Of a DNA stretch of 64,000 nucleotides, positions 4,237 to 54,629 are shown one piece after another; within the stretch, counting starts at the first letter, position 1, and each line of letters starts with the position of its first letter. The notes under the pieces were generated by a model. The model was not told where the DNA came from. It did no database searches and worked only from the letters and a program-made list of their open reading frames with translations. Source of the DNA: an uncultured Nitrososphaerales archaeon (GTDB lineage Archaea; Thermoproteota; Nitrososphaeria; Nitrososphaerales; Nitrososphaeraceae); NCBI GenBank assembly GCA_963709405.1, contig CAVPXM010000063.1:32001-96000 (forward strand). Direction: 5' to 3'. A program made the translations under genes and the position numbers.

Positions 4237-6120
4237 ATGCAAAATAGTTCATCGGGAAACGAGCCTTCAAGCCAGAATATTATGGCTAGCATCCTCAATA
4301 ATATCCCGGCCGATTCAGGTCTTACTAAAATTGTTTATGAAGGACCAAGAATTGCTCTTTATGCCAAAAATACAGAATTCATTATGAAAGACACACAGGT
4401 TATTTCTAACATGGTGAATATACTTAAAAAAAGGATAGTTATACGCACTGATGAGTCTATTAGATTACCAGACAAGGAATCACTGAGGATTTTGCAACAA
4501 GTGATGCCAGCTGACGTTAAAATAAGAGAAGTATTTTTTGATGACGCGTTAGGAGAAGCCTGGGTTTGGGTTCAAAATAAATCCTTTTCATTTGAAACAA
4601 ATGAAAACATAGGTGATTTTCTGAAGAAGACGGGATGGAAGTTGGTATTAATGAGAAGTCCTAATACAATTACAACGATTAAGGAAATAAACGATGTGCT
4701 AAAGAAACGGGTGGAAGAACGTGCTCGATTTTATAAAAGTGTCGGTGAAAAAATATTTAGGTCAAAGTTGAGCAACACAGTTGAGGCGAGTGTAGTCGCT
4801 TTAGGGGGCTTTGGTGAGGTTGGAAGGTCTTGTTTTTTGCTCATTACTGATGAGAGCAAGGTCATATTTGATTGTGGAATCAACCTATATTCTCGAGATA
4901 GAATTAATGCCGTTCCCAGATTTGACACCCTTGGCATCAAAATGAATGATATTGATGCCATCGTAATTAGTCATGCGCATCTGGATCACACTGGATTCCT
5001 TCCTGTGCTTTTTAGGTATGGCTATTCAGGACCAATCTATTGCTCTGATCCTACTGTTCCTCTCATGTTTCTATTGCATAAACGGTATATCGAGGAAGCA
5101 GGGTCAGAAGCACTGTACTCGACTAAGGAGATAGAAGATATGGTTATACACACTATCCCATTGACATTTGGGAGTGTGACAGACATATCACCCGACATAA
5201 AAATAACGCTGGGTAATTCTGGTCATATTATAGGCTCTTCCGTAATCCACGTCCATATTGGGAACGGAGATCATAATCTAGTTTATTCTGGCGACTTGAA
5301 GTTTGGAAAGACGTATTCTCTTGATAACGCAGTTTGGAATTTCCCGAGGGTAGAAACACTGATAATCGAAGGAACGTACGGTGGAAAACAAGACGTATTT
5401 CCACATCGTGATGAAGCAGATACTATTCTAATAGAGAGCATAAATAATACCCTCATACGAGGAGGAAAGGTACTGTTACCTGTTCCCTCAGTAGGACTTC
5501 CACAAGAACTAATACTGACGATCAATCAATATATGACTGCGGGAAAAATTAAAAAGTCAACAATGTTGATTGAGAAAATCATAGCAGAGACGACATGTGT
5601 TTATGAAAGTAACTTGCAATATTTATCAAAGGACTTGCAAGCTGTCCTTATTCAAGGTAACGAAAATCCGTTAAGGCCGGATAATATGAAGATAGTTGAC
5701 TCAGTGGCCTTGGATGATAAGCCTGCCATTATTATGTCTCCATCTTCGATGTTGACCGGCGGACGATCTGTTCATTATTTAAAGCAAATCTGTGATTCCT
5801 CAAAAAATAAGATGATTTTTACTTCCTATCAGATGACTGGGACACTCGGAAGGAGTATTCAAGAAGGGTTCACTCGTCGGTTGGTTGAGGATAAGGAATT
5901 TGATCTCGAATGCGAAATCGAGACAATAAATGGTCTTTCTTCCCATAACGATTATAATCAATCGCTAGCATATATAAGCAGAATGAAGCAAAAGCTCAGA
6001 CGAGTATTGGTTAATCATGGAGAAAAAACAAGAGTTCAAAATTTGGCAAATTCTGTTAGCAAGATTTTCAAGATCCAAACACAACATCCGTTAGTACATG
6101 AATCAGTCAGGCTTATTTGA
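4237..6120 (+). CDS. beta-CASP ribonuclease, aCPSF1/FttA family (KH + metallo-beta-lactamase + beta-CASP)
   Basis: YEGPRIALY, LGGFGEVGRSC, SHAHLDH, GHIIGS, NHGE motifs. Confidence 0.9.
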   Translation: MQNSSSGNEPSSQNIMASILNNIPADSGLTKIVYEGPRIALYAKNTEFIMKDTQVISNMVNILKKRIVIRTDESIRLPDKESLRILQQVMPADVKIREVFFDDALGEAWVWVQNKSFSFETNENIGDFLKKTGWKLVLMRSPNTITTIKEINDVLKKRVEERARFYKSVGEKIFRSKLSNTVEASVVALGGFGEVGRSCFLLITDESKVIFDCGINLYSRDRINAVPRFDTLGIKMNDIDAIVISHAHLDHTGFLPVLFRYGYSGPIYCSDPTVPLMFLLHKRYIEEAGSEALYSTKEIEDMVIHTIPLTFGSVTDISPDIKITLGNSGHIIGSSVIHVHIGNGDHNLVYSGDLKFGKTYSLDNAVWNFPRVETLIIEGTYGGKQDVFPHRDEADTILIESINNTLIRGGKVLLPVPSVGLPQELILTINQYMTAGKIKKSTMLIEKIIAETTCVYESNLQYLSKDLQAVLIQGNENPLRPDNMKIVDSVALDDKPAIIMSPSSMLTGGRSVHYLKQICDSSKNKMIFTSYQMTGTLGRSIQEGFTRRLVEDKEFDLECEIETINGLSSHNDYNQSLAYISRMKQKLRRVLVNHGEKTRVQNLANSVSKIFKIQTQHPLVHESVRLI

Positions 6121-6133
6121 GTCGATGTATTAA

Positions 6134-6150
6134 GAACCTATCCGAAAAGT
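6134..6150 (+). mobile_element. Extra (outer) IS5-type terminal repeat GAACCTATCCGAAAAGT, preceded by TAA
   Basis: 16/17 identical to the inner left end (6307-6323) and 15/17 to the reverse complement of the right end (7247-7263). Confidence 0.8.
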
Positions 6151-6157
6151 AGTTGAG

Positions 6158-6306
6158 GTCGTAATTTAACTAATATAGGATTGAAATGATGACTAGGCGG
6201 TGTACACTCAACCCCGCCTAGATGGTTGTAATTTGATCAATATAGAATTGAAACTTAGCTGCTCCCGGATTCGAGTCACATACTCGCATTGTTGTAATTT
6301 GACTAA
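6158..6306 (+). CRISPR. Orphan CRISPR mini-array: two 30-nt repeats plus a truncated third repeat, two spacers (37 and 36 nt)
   Basis: Repeats 6158-6187 GTCGTAATTTAACTAATATAGGATTGAAAT and 6225-6254 GTTGTAATTTGATCAATATAGAATTGAAAC, half repeat 6291-6306 GTTGTAATTTGACTAA. The ATTGAAAC 3' end and spacer sizes are CRISPR-typical. No cas genes in the window. Confidence 0.8.
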
Positions 6307-7263
6307 GAACCCATCCGAAAAGTAGAGTTTTATTGAGTTACAAGCAAAGTGTGTTTGATCGATAAAGCTAAGCTGTACTGCAAGTATCTTCTGAGTTGTT
6401 GTATTGATATCAGAGGTTAGTGGAGTTGATTCATCTTACTGCATACCTGATGTTGTTTGGGACAGGATCATTGCATTGCTATCTCCATCAATACGAAGGA
6501 GGAAGAAAAAGGCTGGTCGTCCAAGAATGGATGACAGGAAGGCTATGAGTGCTATTTTCTACGTCCTACGTACAGGCTGTCAGTGGAATGCTCTACCAAG
6601 AAGTCTTGGTGCTTCAAGTACAGTACATGACAGATTCCAGGAATGGATAAAGGCTGGTGTTTTCAAGCGAATGTGGATCGATGGATTGACCATGTACGAT
6701 AAAAAAACTGGGATCGATTGGAAATGGCAGGCTATGGATGGAGTGATTACAAAAGCACCTCTTGGGGGAAAAAAGCACAGGACCAAATCCCTACCACAGA
6801 CAGAGCTAAATCAGGTACAAAACGCAGTATTCTAGTAGATGGTAAAGGTGTACCACTTGGTGTATCTGTAGATGGAGCTAACAGACATGACATGAAGATG
6901 ACCAAAGCAACACTGCAAAGCATAGTCATCTATAGACCTGAACCAACAATCAGATTAAAGCAGCACATGTGCATTGACAAAGGCTATGCCTTTCCTGAAG
7001 TATACGAATTACTAGAGAAGAGTATGGTTATACAATTCACATCAGATTAAGAGGTGAAGAAATAAGCAACAATAAAGAAGAAGAAGAAGGAATACCAAAA
7101 TACAGAGCTAGACGATGGGTTGTTGAAAGAACCCATTCTTGGATGAACAGGTTTAGACGATTGCTAATAAGATGGGAAAAGAGGATAGAGAACTATGTCG
7201 GAATGCTACATCTTGCTTGTGCTTGGATCACGTATAGAAGAGGTGGACTTTTCGCATAGGCTC
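6307..7263 (+). mobile_element. IS5-family insertion sequence
   Basis: Ends GAACCCATCCGAAAAGT and ACTTTTCGCATAGGCTC, flanked by TAA on both sides, with an IS5 transposase inside. Confidence 0.9.
6404..7259 (+). pseudogene. IS5-family transposase in three frames
   Basis: GRPRMDDRKAMSAIFYVLRTGCQWNALP, KRSILVDGKGVPL, DKGY, RWVVERTHSWMNRFRRL. A G5A6 slippery-like site lies near 6765, and there are further indels. Confidence 0.88.
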
Positions 7264-7715
7264 TAAATTAAGATAGATATCTCGAAGTAATTCTCACTTG
7301 GCCTTAGGTTTATACTCAGGATGACGATAATGGTACTAGCAATATGAATTCGTTATTCACGTGCATTCAGGAATTTTATCCCAGATATTCTTGAAGCCAG
7401 TTAGGCGCTAAGGTTTTACTCGAGGGCTAGTAATGACTAAAAGCTCTCCGGCCTATCAGGCTATTGCCGAACTTGAGAAAAAGAGTGTAACTGAGCAGAT
7501 CTCGTAGCATTGTGTTAACTACTTTTGTCATTTCTTATTTGATTCTTGCAGCTAGCACATCATCCATTTTCTCTATATTGTAGGTTGATCGACCGACTTT
7601 AGGAACACAAGAAGGTTTGATAATTCTGTGCCACTACTATAAGATGAAATATATTCCAACTTCTCACGATTAGATAAATCATACTACTTAATACTGAAAA
7701 ATGAACTACTCGACT

Positions 7716-8750
7716 TCAGATTCTAAGCTTATTTAGGATTGATTCTTCACATGGAACTGAAGTGATATTGACCATAATTTTATCTTCACTCCAAACTCTT
7801 ACTGTAGAAACGCTGACCTTAGGAGCGTCTGAATACCGTAAGACTATTGCACCGGCAGTAGATAATACGGACTGGAGGTCAGTTCCCCTTAACATACCCA
7901 CAGGGCCCTTGTATTCTTCTGCTTCAAGCAATAGGTCACGATGGTTAGCAAGTCCCGATATAATTTCATTTTCGTCCTCGTTTCTACCAACTATCAATTT
8001 TGAACCACCGGACAATCTAAAATGTCTGCCTACCTTTAGGAGTTGTATGTCATTCATTGTCATATCACGGTCACCTTTTGTGATAAGGTCCTTAAGTTTC
8101 TTTGAAAAACTTTTATCTGTTAACAAACATCCCCCTGCGGCATTGGGAGGATCAAGTATTCCATACCGCGTTGCAAGCTTAATCTGCTCTTTTCTAGATC
8201 TGCCATTTATGGAATAAAGATTCTCGCGTTTTATGAGACCGATAATCTCTGGCTCAGAAGGTGGAAGGTTACCTGCCGATAATGGTCGTACTACCTTGCC
8301 GGTCATCTGGGCAGCTCGCTCAATAATTTGCAATGCTCTCCTATTCTGACTCATTGGTCTTTGAGAGAGAACCTCTCCAGTAATTAAAAAGTCGGCTCCT
8401 ATATTTTCCATGTGCTCCTTAGCACTTTTATACATCATAGCTCTGCAATCTATACACGGATTCATACCTGAACCATAACCGTATTTTGGATTCTTCACCA
8501 TTTTCAGATATTCTTCCCCCAGATATACGGTTTTAAGCTTAATCCCCAAATCAGCTGCTACCTCCTTTAGATTGTGTCCACATCCTCTACCACAGTCGAA
8601 ATCACAAAATGGTGTTTTAATTGCTACTGCTTCCACGTCTATGCCCTGTTCTCGGATGATTCTAACTGCTAGATTACTATCAAGACCTCCAGATAATAGT
8701 GCTACTGCCTTCTTTTTCTCTGCATTGGTATCAATTTCCCGCATGGGCAT
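7716..8750 (-). CDS. ThiI/MnmA-like PP-loop tRNA thiolation protein with C-terminal DUF814/NFACT-R-like domain
   Basis: LLSGGLDS, NPCIDCR, TGEVLSQRPMSQ, AGGCLLTD, VGRHFRL, IVGRN. Confidence 0.8.
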   Translation of the reverse strand: MPMREIDTNAEKKKAVALLSGGLDSNLAVRIIREQGIDVEAVAIKTPFCDFDCGRGCGHNLKEVAADLGIKLKTVYLGEEYLKMVKNPKYGYGSGMNPCIDCRAMMYKSAKEHMENIGADFLITGEVLSQRPMSQNRRALQIIERAAQMTGKVVRPLSAGNLPPSEPEIIGLIKRENLYSINGRSRKEQIKLATRYGILDPPNAAGGCLLTDKSFSKKLKDLITKGDRDMTMNDIQLLKVGRHFRLSGGSKLIVGRNEDENEIISGLANHRDLLLEAEEYKGPVGMLRGTDLQSVLSTAGAIVLRYSDAPKVSVSTVRVWSEDKIMVNITSVPCEESILNKLRI

Positions 8751-54436: not shown

Positions 54437-54629
54437 AACTCTCGAATAGGTTCTTAGGTCAAATTACAACGGTTCACCCTCGATATCTAAACATTACTTC
54501 TTTCAGGATGTTTCAATCCGATATTAGTCAAATTACAATACAACAACACACACACCCACAATCTCAGATAGGAGTGTTTCAATCCTATGTTAGTCAATTT
54601 ACAACCTCAACCACTTTTAGGATCGGTTC
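54437..54629 (-). CRISPR. Second orphan mini-array (same 30-nt repeat family as 6158-6306) bracketed by IS5-type ends; spacers 36 and 39 nt
   Basis: On the - strand: GAACCGATCCTAAAAGT, GGTTGAG, GTTGTAAATTGACTAACATAGGATTGAAAC (54576-54605), spacer, ATTGTAATTTGACTAATATCGGATTGAAAC (54510-54539), spacer, GTTGTAATTTGACCTAA, GAACCTATTCGAGAGTT. Confidence 0.8.

Follow-up and report, generated by a model that had tools for sequence, protein, structure and literature searches.

Positions 6134 to 7263 of a 64,000-nucleotide stretch of contig CAVPXM010000063.1 (hereafter the window), from an uncultured archaeon of the family Nitrososphaeraceae, are probably a single transposable unit of the IS5 family of insertion sequences (IS), in which an ordinary 957-bp IS is joined to a 173-bp part bearing a short CRISPR array. 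The whole unit is real, mobile and, as an IS-borne mini-array, apparently undescribed; the array itself is likely to travel as a passenger. The unit measures 1,130 bp, and its 173-bp non-coding part consists of an outer IS end of 24 nt (designated L'), two repeats, two spacers and a half repeat. The layout given in a preliminary description of this DNA (TAA, IS end, mini-array, second IS end, transposase, right end, TAA) matches a direct reading of the window. BLAST and pattern searches were run across the whole assembly (4.83 Mb in 100 contigs, 91% complete).

Evidence for movement as one unit

That the mobile unit extends from the outer end to the right end, as the preliminary description had proposed, is borne out by an empty site, by array-free relatives and by 11 junction loci with different flanks. 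Regarding the empty site, contigs of four public runs were placed on positions 5600-7800 (those of run X15 at 90% likeness), and one contig of X15 joins position 6130 to position 7264, skipping 1,133 nt (6131-7263). The TAA at this joint fits both sides, so that the two copies of the target duplication, TAA at 6131-6133 and TAA at 7264-7266, are replaced by the single TAA downstream of aCPSF1 for which a search had been suggested. This contig measures 270 nt, of which 93 lie on the shorter side of the joint, differs at 6 of 177 nt, and is good but not overwhelming evidence. The filled left junction (aCPSF1, outer end, array) was found in contigs of DNA runs from three studies (5600-6289, 5784-6227 and 5720-6225), and the right junction is covered by one run contig (7237-7800); occurring in independent run contigs, the filled junctions show that the unit is not an assembly artefact.

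In all five informative genomes of the same genus aCPSF1 adjoins a ThiI-like gene, and the intervening region of 520-725 nt contains neither a repeat nor an IS end; a sixth contig, which ends before the next gene, was excluded. These intergenic regions are too diverged for base-level alignment, and what can be read from them is limited to synteny and the lack of repeats and ends. The proposal survives the objections that had been foreseen for it: the site is free of an array in relatives, the outer end belongs to an IS and is no leader, and further copies exist as well as an empty site.

Matching target duplications, which alone are not discriminating because TAA precedes the inner end as well, are present in all three composites that have both outer ends (TAA/TAA in the window, TTA/TTA on contig C55 and TAA/TAA on contig C49). 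A copy without IS on contig C21 (C21:283k) stands in the context ctgacTTA-L'...GACTAT-TTAgtcaac, a perfect palindromic target, as is expected if a composite arrived at this site and subsequently lost its IS part by excision. The window unit also shows a feature of composite transposons and of IS with passengers, namely an IS and a passenger moving together between inverted ends with one target duplication.

Organization of the unit

All features of the unit lie on the plus strand unless stated otherwise. The left TAA is followed by the outer end GAACCTATCCGAAAAGT (6134-6150) and the linker AGTTGAG (6151-6157), which together form L' (GAACCTATCCGAAAAGTAGTTGAG, 6134-6157) and are the same as the initial 24 nt at the left end of IS-B, one of two related IS of this genome. 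CRISPR-type repeats 1 (6158-6187) and 2 (6225-6254), each of 30 nt and with 3 mismatches to the family consensus, enclose spacer b (6188-6224, 37 nt), which contains a hairpin (CTAGGCGG...CCGCCTAG) with a copy-variable loop. Spacer g (6255-6290, 36 nt), parts of which recur at C21:92678-92694 and C55:151376-151394, leads to the half repeat GTTGTAATTTGACTAA (6291-6306), which terminates in GACTAA, the preferred IS target half-site according to the target logo described below. The two window repeats are identical to each other at 24 of 30 positions (manual count), and because they are no more alike than this and each differ from the consensus, the window by itself gives a weak repeat signal.

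Next comes the IS itself, a 957-bp IS5-family element (6307-7263) designated IS-A2 and similar in sequence to copies of the other IS, IS-A; its own left terminal inverted repeat, the inner end GAACCCATCCGAAAAGT (6307-6323), has the same orientation as the outer end. Its transposase occupies three frames: an N-terminal frame (6395-6835; DUF4096 of the IS4/5 family, Pfam PF13340, E 1.4e-24, within 6404-6835), a second frame with the DDE part (6703-7050; Pfam PF01609 DDE_Tnp_1, E 1.3e-08, within 6718-7050) and a third with the C-terminal part (6999-7259), which is one frame break beyond the best IS-A copies. The right terminal inverted repeat, found by repeat search, lies at 7247-7263 on the minus strand and reads inward GAGCCTATGCGAAAAGT.

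The outer and inner ends form a 22-nt direct repeat (6131-6152 and 6304-6325, 95%). In inverted pairing with the right end the outer end extends over 22 nt at 86% and the inner end over 25 nt at 76%, both from the repeat search. A recount of the match to the right end gave the figures previously reported, 15/17 for the outer and 14/17 for the inner end. The missing half of repeat 3 does not lie beyond the right end, as had been noted; the sequence there is TAAATTAAGATAG.

The aCPSF1 gene ends at 6120, 13 nt upstream of the outer end, and runs in the same direction. The gene 3' of the insertion (7716-8750, minus strand) encodes a HUP domain of the ThiI/tRNA-methyltransferase type fused to an NFACT-R_2 RNA-binding domain, and its position next to aCPSF1 is kept across the genus.

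Insertion sequences and transposase

The genome contains two related IS5-family elements, IS-A (942 bp) and IS-B (988 bp). Seven array-free IS-A copies are about 97% alike and 90.6-92.4% identical to the window IS (92.4% for the reference copy C25:26254-27195); the left part of the window IS is 93% identical over 365 nt to a truncated copy on contig C59, whereas IS-B and the window IS share about 81% identity. At its left end IS-B reads ..CCTATCCGAAAACTAGTTGAG.. and continues into its own interior, and IS copies in relatives begin likewise. Regarding the two left ends of the preliminary description, the outer end is indeed an IS end, but it derives from the sister element IS-B (its first 24 nt) and not from the left end of the IS that it accompanies; the likeness of L' to IS-B stops after nucleotide 24. 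As the cause of the fusion of L' to the repeat, a homology of the repeat with subterminal IS-B sequence was considered and rejected, with 66% of shuffles scoring as high.

Each of the six IS-B copies that reach 640 bp or more has an array attached to its right end, in the order left end (>), transposase, right end (<), half repeat, array and L' (<); this count leaves out four fragments of 44-167 bp (on C35, C38, C53 and C54), which have no array on the right end. In the window and on C59 the array adjoins the left end of a diverged IS-A instead. L' stands in inverted orientation to the distal IS end in either layout, which is the geometry required by a transposase.

The window element has the features of the IS5 family (DUF4096 and DDE_Tnp_1 domains, short terminal inverted repeats and a short TWA duplication at a preferred motif). 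TWA flanks six of the seven complete array-free IS-A copies, and the flanks of 99 IS5-like ends in the genome, with the exclusion of five ends that abut the half repeat, yielded the target logo (G/T)-A-C-T-W-A. While the window transposase is split over three frames, the IS-A copies at C25:61400 and on C86 and C58 keep a two-frame or fused transposase and could, to judge from these frames, be a source acting in trans. Broken frames were found in all four IS-B copies examined (three full-length copies and one on C50 without 28 nt) as well as in the window IS. The unit encodes only the IS5 transposase; TnsB, TniQ, Cascade or Cas12k genes are absent from its 1,130 bp.

Elements of about 440 bp with IS5-type ends and no transposase were observed at C37:45880-46319 and C65:8911-9350, and also at the loci C37:26555 and C96:4381; in these an L'-like end is followed by other sequence. 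Paired loci of this kind have identical flanks, which indicates that the assembly contains some redundant contigs.

A dispersed family of mini-arrays

Genome-wide, 42 matches to the repeat with at most 7 mismatches fall into 16 clusters, far beyond chance. Fifteen of these clusters are mini-arrays of 1-4 repeats and one is a cas-linked array on contig C46, so that 37 dispersed mini-array repeats stand against 5 that are cas-linked. Taken over 36 mini-array repeats, the consensus is exactly GTTGTAATTTGACTAATATAGGATTGAAAC, the repeat consensus of the preliminary description. A search for other copies with the same junction of end, linker and repeat, as had been recommended, was successful: the junction of L' (with its AGTTGAG) and repeat is present at 11 of the 15 loci, all with different flanks and each preceded by TWA or near-TWA, and the 24-mer of L' is present at 11 array junctions. 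Seven further flanks are unique except for other repeats.

The spacers are not unique to their loci, but are drawn from about seven sequences (a, b, g, c, f, d and e) common to the 15 copies. Each locus contains a colinear subset, and the order a<b<g<c/f<d/e is violated in no copy, which is the pattern expected if a single ancestral array was copied and the copies lost units by repeat-repeat recombination. Repeats measure 30 nt and spacers 36-39 nt, the exception being one fused spacer of 57 nt on C55. IS-A and IS-B, in opposite orientations, occupy the same repeat position.

The window holds a second, decayed member at 54437-54629 on the minus strand, which reads L' (54629-54613, 2 mismatches), GGTTGAG, repeat, spacer a, repeat, spacer d and half repeat (54470-54455), and which ends in a remnant of the IS-B right end only.

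Spacer b has 11 other copies in the genome beside the window copy, and its hairpin motif is present only in mini-arrays. Between copies the stems and flanks differ by 4.2%, whereas the 13-nt loop differs by 48% (pairwise divergence); one locus has two spacer b units in tandem with different loops. It is possible that several ancestral b-type spacers were collapsed by recombination, or that mutation is specific to the loop. A role of the loop as a guide to the insertion target was considered and rejected, the longest word common to a loop and its own flank averaging 5.17 against 4.74 for the flanks of other copies, which is no signal. A tandem repeat with 66-67-nt spacing at C38:13313 was likewise considered as CRISPR and rejected as a plain tandem duplication.

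CRISPR origin and host cas context

Judged from its sequence, the mini-array is genuinely CRISPR-derived and its repeat belongs to this lineage. In a genome of the same genus (G006) an array of 2 repeats carries a repeat identical at 29 of 30 positions together with its own spacer, and elsewhere in the family there are arrays, of 9 and 24 related repeats, whose spacers are unique. The exact repeat gave no match in 185,579 species genomes and was found on one contig in the metagenomes of JGI (Ga0182008_10008529, L118), where, at about 1974-2068, it occurs with the same half repeat (GTTGTAATTTGACTAA) and two other spacers and without an IS end; this mini-array sits between GH5-like and CorA-like genes. 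No cas genes were seen beside the related arrays of G006, G017 and L118 in the stretches inspected.

The cas-linked array of the host genome has 5 repeats of sequence GTTTAAATCGAACTATTATAGGATTGAAAG, identical to the mini-array repeat at 23 of 30 positions and at 13 of the last 14 nt, including the handle ATTGAAA (manual count). The region C46:1-7570 (L023) contains, in this order, a Cas6 C-terminal domain, the array and then type I-B cas8b, cas7, cas5 and cas3; the open frame of cas6 has only 146 amino acids and may be truncated. This is the only cas locus in the 91%-complete assembly, in which no match to cas1 was found, no RAMP-family match anywhere and no further arrays beyond the 16 clusters. 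A check for a cas locus with the same repeat, as had been suggested, gave none in this assembly, the only cas-linked array being the differing one on C46.

Proposed history of the unit

The passenger reading, held here to be probable, can be put as a series of events. An IS of this family would have entered an array native to the lineage at the GACTAA of one of its repeats, and a second, inverted IS copy would have supplied L', most of that copy being deleted later with 24 nt left fused to the repeat. A DDE transposase, either from the unit or from intact IS-A copies in trans, would pair L' with the distal IS end and cut and paste the whole unit into (G/T)AC-TWA sites, with duplication of TWA. 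After insertion the arrays would shed units through repeat-repeat recombination, and the IS proper could leave or be replaced, which would account for IS-A in one orientation, IS-B in the other and the copies free of IS. The position of the repeat's GACTAA exactly at the cut in the array, taken with the target logo, suggests that capture began as an ordinary insertion at a preferred site; the same site could be re-used, as the positions of IS-A and IS-B imply.

Several points weigh against this reading. The empty site is a single contig of low depth (3.7) from a run labelled as RNA, and it represents a related strain and not the same one. The 3-bp duplication cannot tell the outer from the inner end, the half repeat also ending in TAA. 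No intermediate was found for the presumed origin of L' from an inverted copy with subsequent deletion, and the arrays at C21:92k and on C50 and C97 are without L' and yet have unique flanks, for which only later deletion accounts. The broken transposase frames may be assembly indels, which makes the term 'defective' uncertain. The hypervariable loop of spacer b is not accounted for by a neutral passenger, and the absence of protospacers reported below is weak evidence, since the collections are poor in viruses of these archaea.

Alternative explanations

A plain IS insertion into an array resident at this site, with loss of the downstream part and with the outer end as a leader or an unrelated IS scar, has hardly any probability left. 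IS5-family elements of this genome do prefer GACTWA, which is contained in the repeat, and IS insertions into CRISPR loci are common (PMC10359306); however, at this locus the idea is already contradicted by an empty site that lacks the array as well as the IS. The absence of an array at the site in all five informative same-genus genomes argues in the same direction, as does the outer end, which is the end of full IS copies in this genome and in relatives and which recurs in the same junction at 11 loci.

Functional cargo is a more serious alternative, though an unlikely one. The array would be transcribed and cleaved by the Cas6 of the host, eight nt from the end of the repeat (tag 5'-ATTGAAAC), before being loaded into the host's type I-B Cascade, for example against competing elements or for gene regulation; cas-less mini-arrays are known to work thus in archaeal viruses (PMC6858448, PMC11656645 and PMC8616872). 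The assembly does encode cas8b, cas7, cas5 and cas3 of type I-B and a Cas6 C-terminal domain beside a 5-repeat array whose repeat agrees with the end of the mini-array repeat (13 of the last 14 nt, ATTGAAA included), nearly all units retain the dimensions of repeat and spacing (30 + 36-38 nt), and the window copy, 13 nt 3' of aCPSF1 and in the same direction, could be reached by read-through transcription. The preliminary description had gone so far as to see an element that moves guide RNAs and borrows host Cas proteins, which is unsupported so far. None of the seven spacers has a match elsewhere in its own genome, including in IS or other elements, and window spacers b and g have none in 40 relatives. 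For the C55 array (a, b, a g/c hybrid and d), searched against 237 further genomes of the family, no spacer-only match was better than chance, the best E values per genome being about 0.002 or more; with three arrays as query, the best match among GenBank phages was an irrelevant one to a Bacillus phage (79.6% over 53 nt); and the first 24 nt of four of the seven spacers (a, d, e and f) gave no exact match in IMG/VR. A further difficulty is the repeat itself, which shares only 23 of 30 positions with the cas-linked array in a genome where cas1 was not found and the cas6 frame is short. Repeats deviate by 4.6% from the consensus, without a difference between 5' and 3' halves, and spacers by 3.8% pairwise; repeat divergence is not below spacer divergence, and no stronger constraint on the repeats is visible. 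The strong hairpin of spacer b would make a poor guide. Spacers as regulators of the host cas operon were tried and rejected, the best seed matches in C46:1-8000 (11-12 of 15) equalling those of shuffled spacers. The depth of the X15 contigs is no measure of expression or RNA ends, and the array stretch is multi-copy. A guide-RNA function is unproven and currently unlikely.

The repeats rather than the spacers might be what matters, as decoys that would titrate Cas6 or Cascade and so form an RNA anti-CRISPR, or as harmless landing pads that bear the preferred IS target; either version is judged very unlikely. The numbers fit a decoy, with 37 mini-array repeats to 5 cas-linked ones, and single viral repeat units have been proposed as decoys (PMC11656645). 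The lack of extra conservation in the repeats counts against this alternative. The landing pad draws on the fit of the repeat's GACTAA to the target logo and on the use of one repeat position by IS-A and IS-B in opposite orientations; against it, no IS lies inside any internal mini-array repeat, and none of 22 loose matches inspected is an orphan right repeat half beside an IS end, those on C6 and C83 being intragenic.

A second case in the family

A degenerate-repeat scan of species genomes found arrays of 2 repeats and 1 spacer inside an element of about 560 bp that resembles a miniature inverted-repeat transposable element (MITE) in the metagenome-assembled genome CAWIYT01 (Nitrososphaerales; G254). 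The element has imperfect terminal inverted repeats of about 65 nt and at least 8 full-length copies of 96-100% identity; it was located at L053:2620-3184 and at 11 other loci (L024, L028, L029, L062, L068, L073, L075, L082, L085, L097 and L100). Its ends are unrelated to the IS5 ends of the window unit, and part of its interior also adjoins a 24-repeat array in that genome. At L123 (G017:C14, about 311300-311400) a truncated repeat after a 9-repeat array abuts AAGTCAGGTGTCAT..., which resembles the end of this MITE; by this resemblance the junction may be another transposon insertion into a CRISPR repeat.

The two cases indicate that capture and amplification of mini-arrays by transposable elements took place at least twice in the family, and the independent MITE case suggests a recurring event rather than an accident. 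A bolder reading, to which only a small probability is assigned, holds that transposable elements of soil Nitrososphaeraceae repeatedly capture and amplify mini-arrays and that host Cas6 processes the transcripts, which then occupy or steer the type I-B Cascade. If this were true, a plain DDE IS would own guide RNAs for competitor exclusion, titration of the defence or regulation, and the hairpin of spacer b would be part of the function. Even as a passenger, the array is of interest as a way in which orphan mini-arrays originate and are disseminated, as a cause of erroneous or puzzling CRISPR annotations in metagenome-assembled genomes, and as a natural test of whether a resident CRISPR-Cas system suffers interference from dispersed repeats.

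Comparison with known systems

Links between guide RNAs and transposons are a central current theme (TnpB/IscB, CRISPR-associated transposons (CAST) and the bridge RNAs of IS110), and viruses, plasmids and Tn7-like elements are known to bear cas-less mini-arrays. A plain DDE IS that carries and multiplies a CRISPR array fragment within a chromosome has apparently not been described: full-text literature searches and term searches of PMC11656645, PMC8616872, PMC6563490 and PMC10120712 gave no IS- or MITE-borne mini-array, while an earlier mention is possible, e.g., in supplementary tables.

Viral mini-arrays have repeats identical or nearly identical to those of the host, and most of their spacers match related viruses (Medvedeva et al. 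2019, PMC6858448; also PMC11656645 and PMC8616872). The window family resembles them in being short (1-4 repeats), in residing on a mobile element, in lacking cas genes of its own and in having a host with a class 1 system; it differs in a repeat that matches the host's cas-linked array at only 23 of 30 positions, in having no target found and in its carrier, a multi-copy chromosomal IS. In CAST and in Tn7-like elements that target CRISPR repeats, a transposon and a short CRISPR array are likewise physically joined, with insertion coupled to CRISPR repeats (PMC11837452). The window unit is nevertheless not a CAST, having only an IS5 DDE transposase and a target set by a short motif, with no guide implied.

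Among IS5 elements the window unit agrees with the subgroup that has a TNA/TWA duplication of 3 bp and a two-frame transposase, which we take to be IS1031/IS427-like. The shared traits are DUF4096 with DDE_Tnp_1, inverted repeats of about 17 nt, the 3-bp duplication of TWA and, where the IS-A copies change frame, a GGGGGAAAAAAGC run, whereas the extra end and the array passenger set the window unit apart. Mobile elements with passengers include composite transposons, 'transporter IS', mobile insertion cassettes and MITEs, in the terms of ISfinder. The window unit shares with composite transposons and passenger-bearing IS a passenger held between IS-type ends, movement in one piece accompanied by a target duplication, reliance on a DDE transposase and derivatives without transposase. 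In contrast to composite transposons, its passenger is a non-coding CRISPR fragment, and one of its ends has been cut to 24 nt and fused to a repeat.

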